56,950 bases of DNA from an uncultured Candidatus Saccharibacteria bacterium. Lineage in GTDB: Bacteria > Patescibacteriota > Minisyncoccia > UBA6257 > 2-01-FULL-56-20. A model generated the notes under the pieces. That model did not search any database. It was not told where the DNA came from and was given only the letters and a program-made list of their open reading frames with translations. Location of the stretch: assembly GCA_964360535.1 (NCBI GenBank), contig CAYHXB010000001.1:1-56950 (forward strand), written 5' to 3'. Positions 1,648 through 46,594 of the stretch are shown in pieces. Position numbers and translations under genes: made by a program. Each line of letters begins with the position of its first letter. The first letter of the stretch is position 1.

Positions 1648-3036
1648 ATGCTTCTTAAATTTTCCAAATTTTTTCTTTACGTTTCCGTATTCAGCGTCCT
1701 CATAGTAATGACTTCGACGTTTTTTCCGTTCATCGGCGGGAAAATGTATTTTTTCAGGGCAACAATCGAATTGTCGCTTATATTTCTTCTTTTCTGGTGG
1801 GGTTTTGAGGCTCCGGATGGCCATTTGTGGGCGCGTTGCAAGGAAATGTTCAAAAAGCCGCTCTTCGCGGCTGTTTCGGTTTTCGCCCTGGCTTTCACCC
1901 TGGCTTCGATTTTTGCTTTCGATTCGCACGCGGCCTTCTGGTCAAATTACGAGCGCGGTGAGGGTGGTTTCCAGATGCTTCATTTTTACGCTTTCTTTTT
2001 CCTTCTAGTTTTTCTTTTCAGGAATAAAAAGGATTGGGAAAGATTATTATGGACTTCCGTTTTTGCAGGCGTTGCCATGATACTTTACGGTGTCGGCGCA
2101 GCGGTTTTTGTGGTCAATCCGGACACCGGCGCTTTTTCAAATCCTTTCGGATTCGTCGGGCCGTACGCGACTCCTTCAAAGTTAGCGGCTTCTACTTTTT
2201 GGGGAAGGCTTTTTGATACTGAGCGTTTTCAGGGTTCGCTCGGTAACCCGGCTTACGTATCTCCATATCTTATTTTTTCCATTTTTTTCCTTTTATGGCT
2301 CTGGTTTTCCCAAAAAAGCAGGAATTTAGTCAAGAATATTTCCTACGGCGCGCTTAGTCTTTTCTTCATGGTATTTTTCTTTTTGGCGGCTACCAGGGGC
2401 GCGTTTGTTGGTCTGGCCGGCGCCGTGTTTGTTTTCCTGCTAGTTCTTGGCTTCGGACATATTAAAATAAGAAAATATGTTGGAGTCGGGATGGCCGTTT
2501 TGGCCATTATTCTAAGTTCACTTATTTATTATAGCCGCACTGATTTTGTAAAAAATCTGCCGGGTGGCCGCATGTTCGACCTTGGAGTGTCCGACCAGAC
2601 CTTCCAGACCAGACTTTGGACATGGAATTCGGCATGGCAGGGTTTTAAGGAGAAGCCGATTTTAGGGTGGGGCCCCGAGAATTTCTCAGCCGTTTTCGAC
2701 AAATATTTCGATACGAGGCACTACGTTCCTGGCAAAGGTTCAGAAACCTGGTTCGATTACGCGCATAGCGTCTTTTTTGACTATCTCGTTGAAACCGGAA
2801 TAATCGGATTCTTAAGTTTCCTCGGAATATTCGTGATTTTTTATCTGGAATGGTTTAGGAAACTGAAACATCAGAATCCGCTCTTTTGGGGACTTATGGC
2901 CGCGTTGCCTGTCAGTTATCTAATCCAGGGACTGGCGCTTTTCAACGTTTTTCCGATTTATATCAATTTATTTTTATTTCTGGCTTTCGCCTGCTACCAA
3001 CTTTATTATTCCGAACATAATTCTCCGCAATCATGA
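1648..3036 (+). CDS. O-antigen ligase/polymerase family (Wzy_C-type) polytopic membrane protein; paralog of 41557..42912
   Basis: 462-aa multi-TM ORF with 'LAATRGAFVGLAG' and 'ILGWGPENF' motifs. It shares long blocks with 41557..42912 ('RFQGSLGNP', 'GWGPENFS.VFDKYFDTR'). Confidence 0.75.
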   Translation: MLLKFSKFFLYVSVFSVLIVMTSTFFPFIGGKMYFFRATIELSLIFLLFWWGFEAPDGHLWARCKEMFKKPLFAAVSVFALAFTLASIFAFDSHAAFWSNYERGEGGFQMLHFYAFFFLLVFLFRNKKDWERLLWTSVFAGVAMILYGVGAAVFVVNPDTGAFSNPFGFVGPYATPSKLAASTFWGRLFDTERFQGSLGNPAYVSPYLIFSIFFLLWLWFSQKSRNLVKNISYGALSLFFMVFFFLAATRGAFVGLAGAVFVFLLVLGFGHIKIRKYVGVGMAVLAIILSSLIYYSRTDFVKNLPGGRMFDLGVSDQTFQTRLWTWNSAWQGFKEKPILGWGPENFSAVFDKYFDTRHYVPGKGSETWFDYAHSVFFDYLVETGIIGFLSFLGIFVIFYLEWFRKLKHQNPLFWGLMAALPVSYLIQGLALFNVFPIYINLFLFLAFACYQLYYSEHNSPQS

Positions 3037-3158
3037 ATCCCGTTAGAAACAACAATTCCATGAAATCAAAAAATATGTTTAATATTTCACACAAAAAGTC
3101 GTACACCACTCAAGCGGTTTATTCACGGTCGTCTTTGACGACCTGTTTCTAACGGGAT
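3037..3158 (+). repeat. Junction element copy 1: ~122 nt with 15-nt terminal inverted repeats (MITE-like or structured-RNA candidate)
   Basis: ATCCCGTTAGAAACA at 3037..3051 is the exact reverse complement of TGTTTCTAACGGGAT at 3144..3158. Internal hairpins lie at 3105..3118 and 3127..3143. Homologous copies lie at 36784..36906 and 44562..44683. Confidence 0.85.
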
Positions 3159-3786
3159 GAACAAGGACATAAAAAAAGCAGTTGCCGTTTCGATATCCAT
3201 TTTCCTGGCGCTGGTCGGTTATTATGGTTCTTATCTGCCGATGCAAAAGTCGATGCTTTTCATCACGGCCATGCAGAGGGCTGCCGGCATGAAAACCATA
3301 AACGACTTTGAGCAAAATTTTTCGATACCGCTTAATGTTCCTTCCCCGATAGGACAAGAAGAACTTGTGCGGAGCATGGCGAATACAATCGCCAACAGCT
3401 TCCAAAATGTTCCACAAAAAGAAGGCGTGGACGAATTGGTAAGATATGTGGAAAGTTACTTCAAACCTATAATTGACAGAAATAGGGGAATGAGTTTCGG
3501 CCAGGACATATACATTTTAGGGGCGATGAACGAATTCGCCTTCATTAAAACCGGAGACAAAAAATATCTGCAGGCAGCCGAGAATTATTTCAAGCGATCA
3601 GTTATTCTCGGTCCGAAACGCCCGCAGGGATTGTACGGTCTGCTTGATGTTTACAGAATGGAAGGAAACATAGAGGGATTTAAAATAACTGCCGAACAGA
3701 TTCTGTCGCAGTGGCCTGACGACGCGCGCACCAAGTCCGTTTATGACCAGTTCATGAAACTTGTTTCGCAGGATGCCAAGAAATAA
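3157..3786 (+). CDS. Hypothetical membrane-anchored protein with a TPR-like C-terminus; paralog of 42896..43489
   Basis: 209-aa ORF with one N-terminal TM helix. It shares 'SPIGQEE', '[11 protein letters not shown]' and 'WPDD' blocks with 42896..43489. Both copies follow a Wzy_C paralog. Confidence 0.6.
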
Positions 3787-3791
3787 AAAAA

Positions 3792-4817
3792 ATGACAGAC
3801 GAGGTTAAAAGAAAAAAAGCCCTCATAACGGGAGCCACGGGCCAGGACGGCAGTTACCTGATTGAATTGCTTCTGGACAAGGGATACGAAGTGCACGGCG
3901 TCATCCGGCGCGCTTCGACTTTCAATACAGGACGCATAGACCATATTTTCCAGGATCCGCATGAAAAAAATCTGCGTCTGATTTTGCACCACGGCGATCT
4001 GGCTGACGCGAACACCATTAGAAAGCTCATATATAAAGTGCAGCCGGACGAGATTTACAATCTCGGAGCGCAGTCGCATGTACGCGTCAGTTTCGACATT
4101 CCCGAATACACGGCCAACATAACCGGTCTAGGCGTGTTGCGTCTATTGGAAGCAATCAAAGATTTTGAAGAGTATACAGGAAAGAAAGTTAAATTCTACC
4201 AGGCCAGTTCCAGTGAAATGTTCGGCGCGGCATTGCCTCCGCAAAACGAGTTAACGCAATTTCAGCCAAGGAGTCCGTACGGCGTGGCCAAAGTATTCGG
4301 TTATTACACCACAAAGAATTATCGTGAAGCATACGGTATTTTCGGAGTCAACGGAATTCTTTTCAACCATGAAAGTCCGAGGAGGGGCGAAACTTTCGTC
4401 ACCAGAAAAATAGCCCGCGGCATAGCAAGAATTATGGCCGGGCTGGACAAGAAAATTTATCTCGGAAATCTTGATGCCCGCCGTGACTGGGGGTACGCTC
4501 CGGAGTACGTGGAAGCCGCCTGGCTGATGATGCAGCAGCCGGAGCCCGACGACTACGTAATAGGCACAGAGCAAAGCCATTCTGTCAGAGATTTGCTGGA
4601 TACCGCTTTCAGTTATGTCGGAATCAATGATTGGGAACAATATGTAGGGATAGACCCGCGCTATTTCCGGCCGACCGAAGTGGAGAATCTGGTAGCCGAT
4701 GCCAGCAAAGCGAAGAAAAAACTTGGATGGGAGCCGAAAGTGAAATTCGAAGAACTGATAAAGATGATGATGGATTCGGAGTTGAAGCACCACGGCCTGA
4801 ATCCACCGAAAAAATAA
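3792..4817 (+). CDS. gmd: GDP-mannose 4,6-dehydratase
   Basis: '[27 protein letters not shown]', 'SSSEMFG' and '[16 protein letters not shown]' are signature Gmd blocks. Confidence 0.9.
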
Positions 4818-4849: not shown

Positions 4850-4888
4850 GGTTCCCTGCCTGCCGGCAGGCAGGGCTCGCACCAAATG
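4845..4888. repeat. GC-rich perfect palindrome CCCTGCCTGCC/GGCAGGCAGGG inside an outer 8-bp stem; cargo-less relative of the cysD GIY-YIG cassette arms
   Basis: A 22-nt perfect palindrome at 4854..4875 is flanked by CATTTGGT (4845..4852) and ACCAAATG (4881..4888). The core CCTGCCTGC/GCAGGCAGG is identical to the arms at 29270..29279 and 29550..29559. Confidence 0.8.
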
Positions 4889-4942: not shown

Positions 4943-6118
4943 ATGATAAAACTCATAAAATCAACTTTTTATCGCGAGAAGGAAACGAAAGACAAGCTGG
5001 CTCAATTCGTCAAAAAAGCCAGGCGTCTAAGCTTCAGCGCGGAATGTGAAAGCTTTGAAACTTTATTTGCCCGCTACCAGGGAAGAAAGCGATGCCTTTT
5101 TTTCAACAGCGGCAGTTCCGCGAATCTGGCTCTCATCCAGGCCCTTTTGAATCTGGGCAGGATAAAGAAAGGGGACAAAGTCGGGTTTTCGGCAGTTACA
5201 TGGCCCACGAATGTAATGCCGCTGATTCAGCTAGGTTTGATTCCGGTACCGGTGGACGTCGAACTGGAAACGCTAAACGTTTCAACAAGGACTCTTGGTG
5301 AAGTAATAAAAAAAGAAAAACTCAAGGCGTTTTTCACGACGAACCTCCTGGGATTTTCAAGCGACATAGGCGAGATAGCGAAACTTTGCCGTAGCAAAAA
5401 GATAATCCTTCTCGAAGACAACTGTGAATCGCTTGGCAGCGTTTATAAAGGGAAAAAGCTCGGCAATTTCGGCTTGGCAGGAACGTTTTCTTTTTACGTC
5501 GGACATCATATGTCGACCATAGAGGGCGGCGCCGTATGCACAGACGATAAGGAATTGGCCAAGATGCTTGGAATGGTCAGGGCGCACGGCTGGGACAGAA
5601 ATCTCAAGCCCGAAGAAAAGAGAGAAATCAGAGGACGGTTTAAAAAATTATCCGACTTTTACGCCCAGTATACTTTTTACGACCTTGGCTATAATTTCCG
5701 TCCGACCGAAGTACAGGGATTTTTGGGAAAACTCCAGCTGAAATTTCTGCCAGAAATAATCAGGAAGAGAAGCGAAAATTTCAAAAAAATCAGCAAGGCG
5801 ATTTACAAACGTTCCGACCTTTATTATCCTCTCCGTTTCGGACATATGGATTTTATTTCCAATTTCGCCGTGCCAGTTGTTTGCCGCTCCAAAAAGATAA
5901 GGAACAAGCTTGTCGAAAAATGCAAAAATTCGATAGAAGTTAGGCCGATAGTAGGAGGAGACATACTCAAGCAACCTTTCTTCCACAAATATTCCAAAAA
6001 GAAAGTTTATCTTCCAGTGGCTGACATTATTCATGAGCAGGGGATTTATTTCGGGAACAATCCCGAATTGAACGCCAAGGAAATAAAAAAAATAATCAAA
6101 GTTTTCACTTCAATATAA
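4943..6118 (+). CDS. colD: GDP-4-keto-6-deoxy-D-mannose 3-dehydratase-like (ColD-type DegT-family PLP/PMP enzyme)
   Basis: 'LLEDNCESLG' and 'RAHGWDRNL' are present. In 'FYVGHHMSTIEGG' a His occupies the position of the PLP lysine (compare 'FYANKIMTTGEGG' in 7529..8635), which is the ColD hallmark. It sits between gmd and an fcl-like gene. Confidence 0.75.
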   Translation: MIKLIKSTFYREKETKDKLAQFVKKARRLSFSAECESFETLFARYQGRKRCLFFNSGSSANLALIQALLNLGRIKKGDKVGFSAVTWPTNVMPLIQLGLIPVPVDVELETLNVSTRTLGEVIKKEKLKAFFTTNLLGFSSDIGEIAKLCRSKKIILLEDNCESLGSVYKGKKLGNFGLAGTFSFYVGHHMSTIEGGAVCTDDKELAKMLGMVRAHGWDRNLKPEEKREIRGRFKKLSDFYAQYTFYDLGYNFRPTEVQGFLGKLQLKFLPEIIRKRSENFKKISKAIYKRSDLYYPLRFGHMDFISNFAVPVVCRSKKIRNKLVEKCKNSIEVRPIVGGDILKQPFFHKYSKKKVYLPVADIIHEQGIYFGNNPELNAKEIKKIIKVFTSI

Positions 6119-27099: not shown

Positions 27100-28323
27100 T
27101 TACTTGCTGATAACTTTGAACTTCGGCGCCGGGACAATGAACTTTCCCCCTCGTTTGAAAAATTCTTTTTCTTTTTTTCTGAAGGAATCGACGAAGCCCC
27201 AGGGAAGAACGAAGAAATAATCCGGCTTGTCGCGCTTTGCCTGCTCCTCGGTAATTATCGGAACGAGCGTGCCGACCGTGAATTTGCCCCATTTCTTCGG
27301 GTCTTTGTCGGCGGCGGCGGTTATCAGTTTGTTGGTCAGTCCGTAGTACTGGAGAATCGTGTTTCCTTTTGTGGACGCCCCATAGGCATAAACTTTTTTG
27401 CCTTTTTTAACTTCCTTTTTAATGAAATCAACAGTTTTCTTTTTGTTTTCTTCAAGCCGTTTTCCGAAGGCCTTGTAGTCAAATTTTGCTTCCGGGAATT
27501 TGATACTGCCTTTGTTCAGTTTCCTAGCGAAGAGGCGATAACTGCCGCCGTTGATGGAATTTTCCTCAACTTTGAAAATCTCCAAGCCGTTTTTCTCAAA
27601 AAGATAAACAAGCGACGGGTAAGAATAAAATTCCAAATGTTCGTGGCAGATATTGCCGATGTCGTTCTTGTCTATCATCGGCTTGAGCGTCATCAGCTGG
27701 GCGATGAAAAGCCCGTCGTCGGCCATAACCCTTTCGGCGTCGCGGACGAACTGGCTCGGGTCTTCCATGTCATAGAACATTCCTATGGCTGTGACTATTT
27801 TCGCTTTCGGCAAGCCGAGTTTCTCGTAAGTTTCCTTGTACCAGAAATCGTGGATTGTTTTGTCGGCGTTCTTTTTAAGTTTCGCCTGAAGGTTGTCGGC
27901 CGGCTCGCATCCCACGCGGACGTATTTTTTCGGTACGAATCCGAGCATGGTGCCGTCATTGGCGCCGATGTCCAGAAACACATCGCCTTTCCCGCCTGCG
28001 CCGATGCTTCGGCGGGCAGGTTTCGGCTTGGCCATTTTTATCGCCTGAGCGACTATTTGCTTGAGATCAGAAATGATAACCGGATTAATTCCGGACTCGT
28101 ACCAATAATGGCGTGAGTACATTATTTCCTGCGGAGCGGTGTGCTTTAACTGGAGGAGGTCACATTTCTTGTTCTGGCAGAGCACCAATTCAAGCGGGGC
28201 TTTGATGCCTTTATCCTTTTTGCTTTTGACGAAATCTGAAACGTAAAGGTTTCCGAGGTTGATAATGCTTTTAAGATTCTTTGAACCGCACAAACGGCAG
28301 GTCTTTCTGGTGATTGTTTTCAT
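27100..28323 (-). CDS. NDP-hexose C-methyltransferase-like class I SAM methyltransferase
   Basis: N-terminal zinc ribbon 'CRLCGSKNL...CQNKKC', the SAM motif 'FLDIGANDG', and a C-terminal Rossmann-like domain 'VYAYGASTKGNT'. Confidence 0.75.
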   Translation of the reverse strand: MKTITRKTCRLCGSKNLKSIINLGNLYVSDFVKSKKDKGIKAPLELVLCQNKKCDLLQLKHTAPQEIMYSRHYWYESGINPVIISDLKQIVAQAIKMAKPKPARRSIGAGGKGDVFLDIGANDGTMLGFVPKKYVRVGCEPADNLQAKLKKNADKTIHDFWYKETYEKLGLPKAKIVTAIGMFYDMEDPSQFVRDAERVMADDGLFIAQLMTLKPMIDKNDIGNICHEHLEFYSYPSLVYLFEKNGLEIFKVEENSINGGSYRLFARKLNKGSIKFPEAKFDYKAFGKRLEENKKKTVDFIKKEVKKGKKVYAYGASTKGNTILQYYGLTNKLITAAADKDPKKWGKFTVGTLVPIITEEQAKRDKPDYFFVLPWGFVDSFRKKEKEFFKRGGKFIVPAPKFKVISK

Positions 28324-28397: not shown

Positions 28398-28425
28398 TTG
28401 ACAGGTTCCCATAAGAGAGTATAAT
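28398..28425 (+). promoter_or_regulatory. Perfect-consensus promoter of the RHH-cysDN operon
   Basis: TTGACA (28398..28403), 16 nt, TATAAT (28420..28425), then the ATG at 28437. Confidence 0.7.
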
Positions 28426-28436
28426 TGCCTATAACT

Positions 28437-28649
28437 ATGAAGTACACAACGGTTTCCATACCCGACCCGCTCAATAAAAAGGTCCAGAAACTCATTAAAG
28501 ACAGCGGATTCGCATCCACGTCTTCTTTTGTTACTTTCGTTCTGCGTGAGATACTTGCAGGGCACGAAGACAAAAGTTCGTTCTCGGGAGCAGAAAGCGT
28601 CAAGGCACAACTGGAAGCACTCGGATATCTCAAAAAAAAGAAGTCGTAA
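28437..28649 (+). CDS. Ribbon-helix-helix (CopG/MetJ/Arc-type) DNA-binding protein
   Basis: 70 aa. 'TTVSIPDPLNKKVQKLIKDSGFASTSSFVTFVLREIL' fits a beta-strand, helix, helix pattern. Confidence 0.6.
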   Translation: MKYTTVSIPDPLNKKVQKLIKDSGFASTSSFVTFVLREILAGHEDKSSFSGAESVKAQLEALGYLKKKKS

Positions 28650-28665
28650 AACAAAAAACAAAACC

Positions 28666-29739
28666 ATGGACAAACACCTTAAAGAACTCGAAGAAAAAAG
28701 TATATCGGTAATCAGGGAAGCGAAAGCGCGTTTCAAAAACGTAGCCATGCTTTGGAGCATGGGCAAGGATTCCACTGTTACGCTCGGGCTTGCGAGAAAA
28801 GCTTTTCTCGGGCACATTCCTTTCCCCGTCATACATATAGATAACGGAATAGATTTTCCGGAGACATACGCGCTCCGCAAAAAAGTTTCCAAAGATTGGG
28901 GATTCGAAATGGTCGTCGAGAAGAGCATAGTCAAACAGGACAAAATATCAGGAGTGGATTGTTGTGGCGGAAACAAAACCGACGCGCTCAAAAAAGTTAT
29001 GGATGAGCGGAAAATTGACGCACTAATAGTTTCTATCCGCCGCGACGAGCACGGCATCCGCGCCAAGGAACGATACTTCTCTCCGCGCGACAAGGAATAC
29101 AAATGGGACTACAAGAACCAGGCGCCGGAGATTTGGGATTACCTTTCCGATTTTCCGGAAAGCGACCATGTCCGCATCCACCCGCTTCTCCACTGGCAGG
29201 AAATAGACGTCTGGAAATACCTCAAGGCGGAAAAACTTCCAGTGAATCCGCTTTACTTTTCACGGAACGGCCTGCCTGCGCCGCGCCCAACAACTTATGT
29301 CATCAGATGTGAAGACAATAGTTTTTATATTGGCCAAACAGAAAATATGCCCAAGCGTTGGCAGGAACATAAAGAAGGTAAAGCTACTTGGACGAAAGAG
29401 CATAAACCTACAGAAGTTATCCATTTTGAAGAATTTGCTACGAGAGATGAGGCGGTGAAAAGAGAGAAAGAGTTAAAAACAGGTTTTGGGCGTCAATGGC
29501 TAAAGCGAGAATATAAAAAGGGTGCTTTACAAAAATGGTACGCGCCGCGGCAGGCAGGCGAAAGGTTCCGCTCACTCGGATGCACGAAATGCACCGTGGC
29601 GATGAAATCCGACGCGAAAACTTTGGACGAAATAATCGCGGAAATTGAAAAAACAACCGACTCGGAACGCGGAGGCAGGGCACAGGACAAAGAAAAAGAA
29701 TATGTCATGCAGCAGCTCCGCGCGCTGGGGTATATGTAA
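28666..29739 (+). CDS. cysD: Sulfate adenylyltransferase subunit 2 (CysD) carrying an internal GIY-YIG domain
   Basis: PP-loop 'AMLWSMGKDSTV', 'RRDEHGIRAKERYFSPRD', 'WDYKNQAPEIW', 'ERFRSLGC' and a C-terminal 'SERGGRAQDKE'. An extra 96 codons at 29272..29559 encode 'YVIRCEDNSFYIGQTENMPKRWQEH...EAVKREKELK'. Confidence 0.8.
   Translation: MDKHLKELEEKSISVIREAKARFKNVAMLWSMGKDSTVTLGLARKAFLGHIPFPVIHIDNGIDFPETYALRKKVSKDWGFEMVVEKSIVKQDKISGVDCCGGNKTDALKKVMDERKIDALIVSIRRDEHGIRAKERYFSPRDKEYKWDYKNQAPEIWDYLSDFPESDHVRIHPLLHWQEIDVWKYLKAEKLPVNPLYFSRNGLPAPRPTTYVIRCEDNSFYIGQTENMPKRWQEHKEGKATWTKEHKPTEVIHFEEFATRDEAVKREKELKTGFGRQWLKREYKKGALQKWYAPRQAGERFRSLGCTKCTVAMKSDAKTLDEIIAEIEKTTDSERGGRAQDKEKEYVMQQLRALGYM
29270..29559 (+). 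mobile_element. In-frame GIY-YIG nuclease cassette bounded by GC-rich inverted repeats
   Basis: The left arm GCCTGCCTGC-gc-CGCG (29270..29285) pairs with the right arm CGCGGCAGGCAGGC (29546..29559). A GGC direct repeat lies at 29269..29271 and 29557..29559. The cargo is a complete small GIY-YIG domain. Confidence 0.5.
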
Positions 29740-29817
29740 GGATTTACAGCGATGTTATACGCAAACACACTGTCAATTTTCCCGGCGAGAAAATTGCGTT
29801 TGCTCTCGGCCTCGCTC

Positions 29818-29841
29818 GTCCCTCCTGCGAGCAGGAGGGAC
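29818..29841. repeat. GC-rich palindrome GTCCCTCCTGC-ga-GCAGGAGGGAC, a variant of the CCCTGCCTGC arm family
   Basis: 11-bp arms flanked by CTCGGCCT direct repeats (29806..29813 and 29852..29859), inside the 174-nt cysD-cysN spacer. Confidence 0.7.
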
Positions 29842-29913
29842 ACCATGCCCGCTCGGCCTGCGAGACAGTTTGCTTAATAACATCTTAATAAATTTTTTAT
29901 TTTTAAATTTCAA

Positions 29914-31080
29914 ATGACCCCATCAATCGTAGTTCTTGGGCACAAAGACCACGGCAAATCCACATTCCTCGGCAAGCTTCTTTTTGACACGAATTCGGTC
30001 CCGCACGACAAGGTAGAGATGACCAAAGAAATAGACGCGGAAGCGGGACGGCCTTTTGAGTGGGCGCACCTCCTCGACAGTTTCAAGGAGGAGCGCGAAC
30101 AGGAAATGACCTATGACACCGCATCCGTTTTCGTTAACGGCAAAAACGGCGCTCTATACATATTCATAGACGTGCCGGGGCATTCGGAGCTGGTGCATCA
30201 GATGATATCCGGGGCTTCGCGCGCAGATATGGCGATACTTATGGTTTCGGCGAAAGAAGGCATAGACGAAATGAGCATCGGGCATCTTATGCTCGCGGAA
30301 TTTTTGGGGATGAAAAAACTCATTGTCGGCGTCAACAAGATGGACGCGTTTGATTACAACGAAGCCGAATTTTTAAAAATAAAGGAAAAAATGGAAACTA
30401 TTCTTGCCGGCAAGTTCAATCCGGAGGATGTTTATTACATTCCGCTTTCGGCGCGCGAAGGGGAGAACGTCGCGAAAGTTTCGGACAAAATGCCGTGGTT
30501 CAAAGGAATGAGTATTTTTGAAAAAGTTGAAGACACGATAGCGAATATGAAAGCAGTTTCGCTGCCGATGCGCGCCATCGTCCAGGATGTTTATCCGAGA
30601 AACGGGGAATCCTTGGCGGCCATAAACGTCAAAAGCGGAGAACTTAAAAAAGGAGAATCGGTTATCGCTTTGCCTTCGGGAAAAACATTTACAGTATCAA
30701 ATTTACTTTCCGTTTCCGGTGATGACACCGAATCCATAAAGGAAGGCGAGAATGCCGGAATCGCGCTTGAAGCCGGTTCAGAAATATCCCGCGGAACAAT
30801 TATCGCTCCGGAGAAAAACGCTCCGCGTTCCGTTAAAGAGGCAGGGAGCGAAATTTTTCTTTTCGGAAATTTCAATCCTGCCGAGAAAATAACCATAGAA
30901 TGCGGTTTTTCCAAAGCCGAACATCAGGGAAGCATTCCTGCGGAAACAAACAAGATAATCGGATTAAGGCTGAATCTTTCAAATCCGCTTCTTTTGGACA
31001 CAGAAGAAACATTTCTCAACAAGTTTGTAATCAAGCAGGGAGGAGAGATAATAGGAGTAGGCAGGATAAAAAATATCTAA
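29914..31080 (+). CDS. cysN: Sulfate adenylyltransferase subunit 1-like translational-type GTPase (CysN-like, no APS-kinase domain)
   Basis: G1 'GHKDHGKST', G3 'DVPGH' and G4 'NKMD'. At 388 aa it has the GTPase and beta-barrel domains only. Confidence 0.7.
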   Translation: MTPSIVVLGHKDHGKSTFLGKLLFDTNSVPHDKVEMTKEIDAEAGRPFEWAHLLDSFKEEREQEMTYDTASVFVNGKNGALYIFIDVPGHSELVHQMISGASRADMAILMVSAKEGIDEMSIGHLMLAEFLGMKKLIVGVNKMDAFDYNEAEFLKIKEKMETILAGKFNPEDVYYIPLSAREGENVAKVSDKMPWFKGMSIFEKVEDTIANMKAVSLPMRAIVQDVYPRNGESLAAINVKSGELKKGESVIALPSGKTFTVSNLLSVSGDDTESIKEGENAGIALEAGSEISRGTIIAPEKNAPRSVKEAGSEIFLFGNFNPAEKITIECGFSKAEHQGSIPAETNKIIGLRLNLSNPLLLDTEETFLNKFVIKQGGEIIGVGRIKNI

Positions 31081-45282: not shown

Positions 45283-45840
45283 ATGACAAGGGCGGTTTTT
45301 TTGGACCGTGACGGAACAATCAACACGGCGATTGAAAACATCCGGAGCGCAAATCAGTTGCGGATTTTGCCCGGCGCGGCCGCGGCTATAAAAAAACTAA
45401 ATCGCGCCGGTTTTCTGGCGATTGTAATCACCAATCAGCCGATAGTGGCGAGAGGATTAATTACGGAGAAAAAGTTGGATTTTATACACGCCGTGCTTGT
45501 AAAACGCCTCGGTAAAAATGGCGCAAAGCTCGATGCGATTTACTATTGTCCCCATCATCCCAATGCGAATCTGCAGAAATACCGAGTGCGGTGTCGGTGC
45601 AGGAAGCCGAACACAGGGTTGATAAAACAGGCGATAAAGCGTTTTCATATAAATTCAAAGAAAAGTTTTATGGTCGGCGACACGATGCCCGATATTGTGG
45701 TGGGTAAACGGGCGAAACTAAAAACAATTTTAGTAAAAACCGGAGGTTTCAAAAATCACAGGGGATACAATACAAGGCCGAATTTCGTCGTTAAAAATCT
45801 TCCCGAGGCGGTAAAAACAATTCTTCGCAATGGAAAATAA
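45283..45840 (+). CDS. gmhB: D-glycero-D-manno-heptose 1,7-bisphosphate phosphatase (HAD-IIIA)
   Basis: 'AVFLDRDGTIN', the Zn motif 'CPHHP...CRCRKP' and 'MVGDTMPDI'. Confidence 0.8.
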   Translation: MTRAVFLDRDGTINTAIENIRSANQLRILPGAAAAIKKLNRAGFLAIVITNQPIVARGLITEKKLDFIHAVLVKRLGKNGAKLDAIYYCPHHPNANLQKYRVRCRCRKPNTGLIKQAIKRFHINSKKSFMVGDTMPDIVVGKRAKLKTILVKTGGFKNHRGYNTRPNFVVKNLPEAVKTILRNGK

Positions 45841-46594
45841 AATAACACAGGCAGTTATACTCTCCGCGGGTTTCGGAACGCGCCTTAAACCGCTCACAGA
45901 TAACATTCCCAAAGTCATGGTGCCATTTTCCGGCAAACCGCTTCTTCAGTGGCACATTGAGCAATTAAAGAAACACGGCGTGGAAGAATTTTTCATAAAC
46001 CTCTTTTATTTGCCGGAAGTCGTAAAAAACTATTTCGGCGACGGTTCCAAATTCGGCGTCAAAATAAATTATTTTTTGGAACAGCCGGAGATACTCGGAA
46101 CTGCCGGAGGCATAAAAGATTTTTCCGCCAAAGGCGGATCCGCCTCGGGCGGAGATGGTTACTTGAAGAACAATTTCTTTGTAGTATACGGGGATGTTTT
46201 CAGTTTGCTTGATTATACAAAGATGGCGGAATCCTTTTTAAATAATAAAGATAATCCGATTGGCATGACTATCGTCGGATTCAACGACCATCCTCACGAT
46301 TCCGACCTGGTTCAGGTTGATAAGAACCTAAAATTCATAAAAGTATATCCTAAGCCGAATAAAGAACTTCCGGAGAACTGGCGGGCAATGCGGACAACTT
46401 TCGTATTTAATGAGCGGATTTTGAAATATATTCCAGAAAACAAGTATTACGAAATAGACCACCAGCTGCTGCCGGATATTCTGTCCAAAGGAGAAAAATT
46501 CTACGGCTATGAAACAACTGACTATTTGAAAGATATCGGAACTCCGGAACGCTACGCAGACGTACAGAAATATCTTTCGGAAAAGGGATTATAA
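45830..46594 (+). CDS. hddC: Heptose-1-phosphate nucleotidyltransferase-like (HddC-type)
   Basis: 'AVILSAGFGTRLKPLTDNIPKVMVPF' and 'GTAGGIKDF'. It contains a GC-rich palindromic segment at 46125..46152. Confidence 0.7.
   Translation: MENKITQAVILSAGFGTRLKPLTDNIPKVMVPFSGKPLLQWHIEQLKKHGVEEFFINLFYLPEVVKNYFGDGSKFGVKINYFLEQPEILGTAGGIKDFSAKGGSASGGDGYLKNNFFVVYGDVFSLLDYTKMAESFLNNKDNPIGMTIVGFNDHPHDSDLVQVDKNLKFIKVYPKPNKELPENWRAMRTTFVFNERILKYIPENKYYEIDHQLLPDILSKGEKFYGYETTDYLKDIGTPERYADVQKYLSEKGL

Follow-up and report, generated by a model that had tools for sequence, protein, structure and literature searches.

A GIY-YIG nuclease domain within a Saccharibacteria cysD gene is probably one copy of a hairpin-bounded mobile element carried in frame by unrelated prokaryotic genes

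In an uncultured Candidatus Saccharibacteria bacterium, the gene for subunit 2 of sulfate adenylyltransferase, cysD, contains a complete small GIY-YIG nuclease domain in the middle of its reading frame. This raises the question of whether the domain is a feature of the protein, a segment removed before the protein matures, or a mobile element that is retained by its host. We addressed this question in a 56,950-nt stretch of the genome, hereafter the window (GenBank assembly GCA_964360535.1, contig CAYHXB010000001.1, positions 1 to 56,950 of the forward strand), and in related genes from genomes and metagenomes. At a probability of roughly 0.72, we conclude that window positions 29271-29558 are a copy of a family of tiny hairpin-bounded mobile elements, the GIY-YIG open reading frame (ORF) of which is translated within host proteins.

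The cysD frame is continuous from 28666 to 29739 on the plus strand and encodes 357 aa, or 261 aa once the insert is discounted. Its assignment was supported by a Pfam PAPS_reduct match (aa 26-311, E = 9e-36), an NCBIfam CysD match split in two stretches (E = 1.6e-88) and similarity to the solved structure 1zun (E = 4e-52), which was also the best Foldseek match (template modelling score 0.84 on the target) of an AlphaFold2 model with core predicted local distance difference test (pLDDT) values above 90. A GIY-YIG domain (PF01541, E = 7e-16) is nested in the protein and occupies aa 209-274. An initial annotation, made from the DNA letters alone, had proposed that 96 additional codons in cysD form a full domain of this type, and the insert searched by itself indeed matched PF01541 at E = 1.1e-16 (61 bits, cut-off 22.6); a GIY-YIG match was likewise obtained in every host tested. 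The same annotation placed the insert at 29272-29559, of which the clean 288-bp insertion stood and the coordinates did not: the boundaries, as given by the unoccupied sites of orthologs and by over 180 further copies, are CCTGCC...GGCAGG, 29271-29558, with a one-C ambiguity. The element thus delimited lies on the plus strand after position 2 of a GGC (Gly) codon and comprises 96 codons with neither start nor stop, and the junctions of the predicted CysD fusion read ...YFSRNGLPAPRPTTYVIR and ...WYAPRQAGER. An identical 357-aa CysD with the same neighbours was present on a 22-kb contig of an ENA groundwater assembly, making an assembly artefact unlikely.

Comparison with orthologs indicates that the domain was inserted. 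Using CysD with the insert removed as the query, we found that among the 120 best-scoring homologs listed, one was the identical 357-aa protein and the other 119 were 254-274 aa long and without GIY-YIG, which rules out an ancient feature of CysD. The empty site sought in orthologs was found in two of them, 92% (P0018, locus L083) and 85% (P0019, locus L084) identical in amino acids, which lack precisely these 288 nt. With the insertion point marked by a caret, the empty sites read AACGG^CGAAAG in L083 and AACGG^AAAACG in L084, and the window reads AACGG, the 288 nt from CCTGCC to GGCAGG, and CGAAAG; nothing is duplicated at this point. The GGC triplets seen at both ends in the initial annotation are real, but they are not a target-site duplication, since they consist of the host's own GG^C and the terminal GG of the element, and other copies have GAC...GGT in their place. 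A duplication of this kind is supported by neither the empty sites nor the family comparison. At exactly the position of the insert, canonical CysD (1zun) has 34 additional residues (query 201 to 299, chain 232 to 267), indicating that the site is a naturally indel-tolerant loop.

We then assessed how widely the insert occurs. Homologs of the 96-aa segment retained the same LPAPRP...(A)RQAG ends within unrelated flanks (HsdM, HsdS, DUF899). A profile search of 1.8 billion representative proteins returned 141 clusters at E ≤ 1e-30, in which the domain was nearly always internal (proteins of 130-1100 aa). A scan of one genome per GTDB species yielded 126 confirmed loci, 80 of which were fetched, from Saccharibacteria and other Patescibacteria, Gamma- and Deltaproteobacteria, Bacteroidota, Planctomycetota, Verrucomicrobiota, Acidobacteria, Nitrospira and one archaeal metagenome-assembled genome (MAG); the single cultured carrier was the isolate Pleomorphovibrio marinus SW125. 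No copies were found among IMG/VR viral contigs or, with tblastn at E ≤ 1e-10, among PLSDB plasmids. Two further arrangements were observed. Another contig of the Hainich groundwater sample that holds the window's cysD (ERZ1292623) has a different copy of 282 nt in a short ORF (L117, 3960-4241, minus strand), and the community, possibly the genome, therefore has more than one element lineage. One ORF of a Zetaproteobacteria MAG (L031) contains two GIY-YIG elements with variant arms TTACCTGC...AGGCAGGCAGGC (2617-2904 and 3001-3282), separated by about 100 nt.

Recognisable terminal arms, with termini 5'-CCTGCCTGCGCCGCG and CGCGGCAGGCAGG-3', were present in 68 genome copies, and these followed a strict frame rule. 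All 68 were a multiple of three nucleotides (3n) in length (279-354 nt), 67 began at codon position 3, and in-silico excision left a host ORF without stops in every case; across the genome loci the frame of the domain was open on either side for tens to a thousand codons. We also drew a metagenome sample of at least 120 copies by arm sequence alone, blind to coding potential. Among these (n = 120), 117 were 3n long and 115 were stop-free in the element frame, 103 of the latter having at least 30 open codons on both sides or reaching the contig end. Surviving copies are thus nearly always 3n, stop-free and in frame with a host ORF that is open on both sides. The suggestion that the same arms should accompany other GIY-YIG genes was borne out by the census, with the same arms bounding the same cargo, in frame, in dozens of unrelated host genes.

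The target is short and shared across hosts. The 68 genome copies occupy 45 distinct sites, and the de-duplicated flanks (G in 36 of 45 and A in 31 before the insertion point, Y in 36 and G in 30 after it) give a consensus of GA^YG, typically encoding Asp followed by Gly, Ala or Glu. Metagenome copies agreed, with GA before the element in 95 of 120 and CG or TG after it in 87. In many phyla, then, the element has entered unrelated genes precisely and without target duplication, following G-A or G-G at no fewer than 45 separate sites. A G-R^Y step is common to the empty target and to the two element junctions (GA^C and GG^Y), which would fit a single cleavage specificity. The hosts identified with Pfam fall into two broad groups. 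Restriction and defence genes included type I HsdR (at several sites), HsdM, HsdS, N6 and N4 methylases, DUF1156 methylases, SNF2 helicases, Type ISP enzymes and a PD-(D/E)XK nuclease, while housekeeping and other hosts were UvrB, the arginyl-, alanyl- and leucyl-tRNA synthetases, MsrB, RibD_C, a radical-SAM enzyme, an AMP-binding enzyme, cobalamin adenosyltransferase and Fic.

The nuclease is conserved as a protein. In the window, the catalytic core (Y, Y, R, H, E) spans 29290-29487 on the plus strand and is followed by the family motif ELKTGFGRxWLKRE to about 29517. Catalytic residues, the absence of which would have spoken against a nuclease, are present in the insert and throughout the family: Y9, Y19, R29, H33, E65 and the motif ELKTGFGRxW were kept in 66-68 of the 68 copies. 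The ratio of nonsynonymous to synonymous substitution rates (dN/dS) of the core was 0.03-0.15 in pairs with unsaturated dS. The nearest solved structures were the UPF0213 proteins 1ywl and 1zg2 (E about 1e-17), with a weak match to SLX1, and NCBIfam contained no specific family for the insert. The element ORF has no start codon and its sole Met is downstream of the GIY motif, such that protein-level constraint on this ORF implies read-through translation from the host gene. Together, dN/dS and frame conservation indirectly suggest that a fusion protein is made in which the nuclease is an internal domain of the host protein.

The terminal arms are conserved as nucleic acid. In cysD, the 5' arm CCTGCCTGCGCCGCG (29271-29285, plus strand; translated ..LPAPR) is conserved at the nucleotide level across phyla and has the layout (G)CCTGCCTGC-GC-CGCG, from 29270/29271 to 29285. 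The 3' arm CGCGGCAGGCAGG (29546-29558, or 29559 with an optional C, plus strand; translated ..PRQAG) is complementary to it, and the two pair over 9 bp, a 2-nt GC bulge and a further 4 bp. The bracketing of the insert by GC-rich inverted repeats can be read in the sequence as first described, and the terminal stem was present in both the minimum free energy and the centroid single-stranded DNA (ssDNA) folds. The 10-mer GCCTGCCTGC occurs exactly in the window only at the two element arms; with at most one mismatch there were 12 matches compared to 2.0 expected, a six-fold excess that none of 100 shuffles equalled. Arm codons at near-invariant residues were frozen (CTG CCT GCG CCG ... CGG CAG GCA, entropy 0-0.5 bits), whereas synonymous choice was free at equally invariant residues of the nuclease core (1.8-2.6 bits). 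Subterminal parts of the arms differ between lineages, yet pair better with their own partner than with the partners of other copies (duplex energy -17.8 vs. -16.5 kcal/mol, observed value reached in 1 of 5000 permutations), and this was also apparent when the conserved termini were excluded (-12.3 vs. -10.9 kcal/mol, 0 of 5000). Frozen codons and subterminal covariation therefore indicate that the arms act as nucleic acid. Some copies (L050, L055 and L057) have an additional hairpin nested near the 3' arm, and the element in L024 reaches 354 nt.

A stem that joins the two junctions could also form in RNA, and in-frame insertions in conserved and essential proteins are the niche of inteins. 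We therefore considered whether the segment is removed before the mature protein, by protein splicing, by RNA splicing or processing, or by ribosomal bypassing between matching codons, and regard such removal as very improbable. GIY-YIG is the only domain detected in the insert, which contains no HINT domain. Copies begin with Leu (64 of 68) and end in Gln-Ala-Gly, the host residue that follows is variable, and the junctions (Leu-Pro... and ...Gln-Ala-Gly) have no conserved Cys/Ser/Thr or His-Asn. An intein is thus rejected, in agreement with the initial annotation, as is a group I intron: no Rfam family matched at E ≤ 1 in 28400-30200 and there was no significant overall fold (z-score -0.68), which likewise rules out a group II intron or another known RNA. 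An archaeal bulge-helix-bulge intron was also rejected, as the arm pairing has a single 2-nt bulge on one strand, and excision from RNA needs neither a 3n length nor continuity of the downstream frame. GGC codons at both ends would suit ribosomal bypassing, but this match is peculiar to the cysD copy. Most copies (GAC...GGT) have take-off and landing codons that differ, and the 5' junction is not followed by a stop codon, so that bypassing was rejected as well.

Hairpins with the same ends also occur without a nuclease. The 497 kb of loci contained 52 mini-hairpins of 18-45 nt with element termini (CCTGCCTGC...GCAGGCAGG, or its CCTGTCTGC variant); 50 of them are within ORFs that stay open for 150 codons or more, and 42 have a 3n length. 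One of them, found in the window by arm-pattern search, is a cargo-less 30-nt mini-hairpin at 27991-28020 (minus strand) with related termini CCTGCCCGC..GCAGGCGGG. It is in frame in a 407-aa methyltransferase gene (27100-28323, minus strand) that adjoins cysD, where it adds PARRSIGAGG, and precisely these 10 residues are absent from the 78%-identical ortholog in L084. At 4854-4875, the perfect palindrome CCCTGCCTGCCGGCAGGCAGGG has the same termini and consists of two arms that abut without cargo, as the initial annotation had it; it is intergenic, between the ORFs at 3792-4817 and 4943-6118, and one of the two mini-hairpins outside a long ORF. The likeness to Rickettsia palindromic elements (RPEs) drawn in that annotation was apt, given that cargo-less minis with the same ends are also found in frame in ORFs. 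Its further claim of an arm variant at 29818-29841 was not upheld, as this is a distinct palindrome, GTCCCTCCTGC/GCAGGAGGGAC. That palindrome belongs to the cysD-cysN spacer (29740-29913), which has 174 nt full of nested inverted repeats compared to only about 22 nt in the 92%-identical L083, and which probably holds another palindromic insertion, like a miniature transposable element with inverted repeats (MITE) and unrelated to the GIY-YIG arms. Three free-standing relatives of the nuclease were also identified (P0013-P0015). At L086 2001-2420, the gene for P0013 (94 aa), which starts at an ATG and ends at a stop of its own, overlaps the stop codon of the AAA_14/DUF4143 gene upstream and is followed by a tandem cluster of related hairpins in an arrangement like that of Ssn or REP-BIME.

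Other palindromes were seen in the window and the related loci. A second family of GC-rich mini-hairpins is in frame at 46124-46153 of the window, in a nucleotidyltransferase gene (ORF 45830-46594, plus strand), where TCCGCCAAAGGCGGA-TCCGCCTCGGGCGGA encodes SAKGGSASGG; the motif TCCGCCAAAGGCGGAT is also found in a methylase gene of L002. Some methylase, DUF1156 and HsdR genes (L002/L004 at about 3280-4060; L028, L032, L023) contain several kinds of GC-rich hairpin in frame, as many as 6-8 per gene. ARAGORN predicted no tRNA or transfer-messenger RNA gene in the whole 57-kb window (1-56950).

Another explanation is that the module has been domesticated or exapted, providing a nuclease or nucleic-acid-binding activity that is useful to hosts, especially in restriction and defence, with the hairpin ends as relics of insertion. 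Activity on DNA is common to most hosts, defence operons account for many of them, purifying selection has been maintained over deep divergence, and a subfamily in Bacteroidota-type HsdR is fixed without arms. By contrast, a DNase has no obvious use in CysD, MsrB, RibD_C, cobalamin adenosyltransferase or three aminoacyl-tRNA synthetases, close orthologs manage without the insert, and the arms are still under nucleotide-level constraint, which would not be the case for a relic. Exaptation as a general account is therefore improbable, although less so than removal from the mature protein. In the HsdR subfamily itself (L037, L058, L061, L069, L073, L075, also L078 and L079), GIY-YIG is in frame without arms, as at L069 2930-3240, and a complete mini-hairpin, CCTGTCTGCGTGCAACGCACAGGCAG, lies about 40 nt upstream; these copies may be old, immobilised or domesticated.

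We also assessed the relatedness of elements at the same and at different sites. In a nearest-neighbour analysis, the closest relative of 26 of 35 elements was found at that same site in an ortholog of the host gene, including in different phyla; for 9 of 35 it was in another gene, and the two MsrB copies each resembled copies in other genes more closely than they resembled each other. The predominance of same-site relatives would be expected under homing, in which empty alleles of a given host gene are cut by the nuclease embedded in it, perhaps directed there by a DNA-binding host protein, and the element is copied in by double-strand-break repair, new sites being reached rarely and illegitimately. 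The lack of target duplication is in line with such a process, as is the presence among the hosts of many restriction or defence proteins that bind DNA and move horizontally, and long-term purifying selection is consistent with a homing cycle. However, homing does not account for 45 or more unrelated sites with only GA^YG in common, for the nearest relatives in other genes and the MsrB site that was hit twice independently, or for cargo-less minis with the same ends spread through ORFs. It also leaves the conserved, covarying terminal hairpins without a role, and the insert has no DNA-binding module in Pfam, unlike GIY-YIG homing enzymes. We consider homing unlikely, if somewhat more plausible than exaptation. 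In a separate comparison, elements in SNF2 helicase genes (L009, L013, L057) were closest to those in DUF1156-methylase genes (L015, L025, L048, L007, L010, L028); genes of these two kinds are commonly found side by side in DISARM-like defence operons, so that the elements may have hopped locally from one to the next.

The element (279-354 bp) is a single GC-rich hairpin, the 'loop' of which is the ORF for a minimal, Slx1/UPF0213/Ssn-like nuclease (about 85 aa) without a start codon, a stop codon or a promoter. The mobile-element reading can be extended from there to a mechanism, of which each step is a proposal. The nuclease would be made only as an internal domain of a host protein; in CysD it would project from the indel-tolerant loop, with the arm-encoded LPAPRP and (A)RQAG serving as linkers. 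In Neisseria meningitidis, hairpin repeats lie on either side of the gene for SsnA, an ssDNA-specific, hairpin-guided GIY-YIG nuclease of a single domain that binds the hairpin and cleaves the adjacent ssDNA (Chenal et al. 2025, PMC11893778). On the model of SsnA-NTS and IS200/IS605, pairing of the arms in ssDNA would bring the GA^C and GG^Y junctions together, and the nuclease would cut at the juxtaposed junctions, leading to excision or copying and to reinsertion at G-R^Y sites, with host ligation or repair finishing the event. Cargo-less mini-hairpins with element termini would then be non-autonomous riders mobilised in trans. If the analogy holds, the nuclease would recognise and cut its own hairpin in ssDNA and so drive mobility, making the element autonomous.

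Several points weigh against this account. Production of the fusion protein and cutting of the arms by the nuclease are both what we infer from patterns of conservation and from known systems, and the AlphaFold2 model gave the insert a GIY-YIG-like secondary structure only at low confidence (pLDDT 41-62). Elements in different genes share at most about 78% nucleotide identity, except for L033 and L066 (84.5%), which are at a shared Fic site, and copies at the same site are often saturated at synonymous positions, so jumps must be rare or old. An exact same-strain empty-site junction was sought in metagenome contigs and none was found. A regular-expression search with the SRM consensus (HGTCWYN(0-2)YYVSBRHN(0-5)WNVSBRGN(0-2)RNCYNB) gave no match in either arm, the mini-hairpin or the 4854 palindrome, and one unrelated match in the whole window. 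To our knowledge, GIY-YIG enzymes are hydrolytic and have no strand-transfer chemistry, and rejoining would need another activity. The GA^YG (Asp-Gly/Ala) preference could reflect insertion-tolerant sites in proteins instead of nuclease specificity, and the strong enrichment in restriction and defence genes could mean that hosts use the domain. With these points in mind, we propose only tentatively, at a little short of even odds, that the family constitutes a new class of mobile element in prokaryotes: a transposon with hairpin boundaries, whose sole gene is a GIY-YIG ssDNA nuclease acting as its 'transposase'. Such an element would have dispensed with expression signals of its own, would reside obligately and unspliced in host reading frames, filling the niche of inteins in the absence of protein splicing, and would mobilise in-frame mini-hairpins.

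If the mobile-element reading is true, selfish nuclease genes have a third way, besides introns and inteins, to inhabit essential genes, with the element persisting in the protein through loop tolerance and a strict 3n, stop-free design. A GIY-YIG enzyme would join the short list of catalysts of prokaryotic transposition, RPE-like in-frame palindromes would gain their first autonomous partner, and GC-rich in-frame mini-insertions in proteins of many uncultured phyla would be explained. The family would also provide a natural catalogue of insertion-tolerant sites, for example in HsdR, UvrB and aminoacyl-tRNA synthetases, and a source of compact hairpin-guided nucleases, possibly as ssDNA tools of the sort proposed for Ssn. 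For annotation, such inserts inflate 'domain architectures' and can pass for functional nuclease fusions in restriction and defence systems.

The family is apparently undescribed. A search of full-text literature, with most subscription journals outside its coverage, gave no description of it, and the only precedents found were the Ssn-NTS system and one case from 2006. The latter is the HsdR MCA0838 of Methylococcus capsulatus, which carries an Slx1-like GIY-YIG insertion that a homolog of 80% identity lacks and that was described as 'very recently inserted' (Dunin-Horkawicz et al. 2006, PMC1564403). Compared by its description, MCA0838 was reported as an isolated curiosity of domain architecture, without terminal repeats, a family, other hosts or a frame rule. 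GIY-YIG homing endonucleases of the I-TevI type have a linked DNA-binding module (NUMOD, helix-turn-helix or zinc finger), whereas the 96 aa in CysD are the catalytic domain only, with a TIGR01453 score of 18.8 bits against a cut-off of 56. Inteins with a homing endonuclease are similar in being selfish nuclease DNA, in frame in essential or conserved hosts, translated with the host and patchy among close orthologs, but the cysD-type insert has no HINT domain or splice nucleophiles, is bounded by DNA inverted repeats and occurs at many unrelated sites. Lacking a splicing domain and splice-junction nucleophiles, it should stay in the mature protein.

Closer parallels are found among palindromic repeats and single-strand transposons. 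RPEs and MITE-like repeats are likewise short palindromes that are in frame in ORFs, kept in the protein and polymorphic among orthologs. RPEs carry no enzyme and have no autonomous partner that we know of; the cysD-type palindrome differs in carrying a conserved nuclease ORF with the same termini across many phyla. IS200/IS605 and REP-RAYT systems resemble the family in behaviour only, namely in hairpin ends, insertion beside a short motif, the lack of target duplication and small non-autonomous hairpins. Unlike IS200/IS605, the cysD-type element encodes a hydrolytic GIY-YIG enzyme alone, with no HUH (Y1) tyrosine transposase, and is intragenic and translated by read-through.

The nearest known system is Ssn-NTS, which shares a minimal single-domain GIY-YIG nuclease of about 100 aa and a gene bracketed by GC-rich hairpin repeats that are also scattered in the genome; the NTS-ssnA-NTS layout was noted by its authors as insertion-sequence-like (PMC11893778). 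Flanking repeats of this kind were found as the arms at both ends of the cysD element and as cargo-less copies in the window and related loci, in a different geometry, and the free-standing relative P0013 likewise has a hairpin cluster behind it. Free-standing ssnA has its own start and stop and complete hairpins, and NTS are rarely in genes (2%). In place of a stand-alone protein of about 100 aa, the cysD-type nuclease is a domain internal to hosts of 130-1300 aa, its flanks are the halves of one hairpin, and its ORF, with no start or stop of its own, is nearly always intragenic and in frame.

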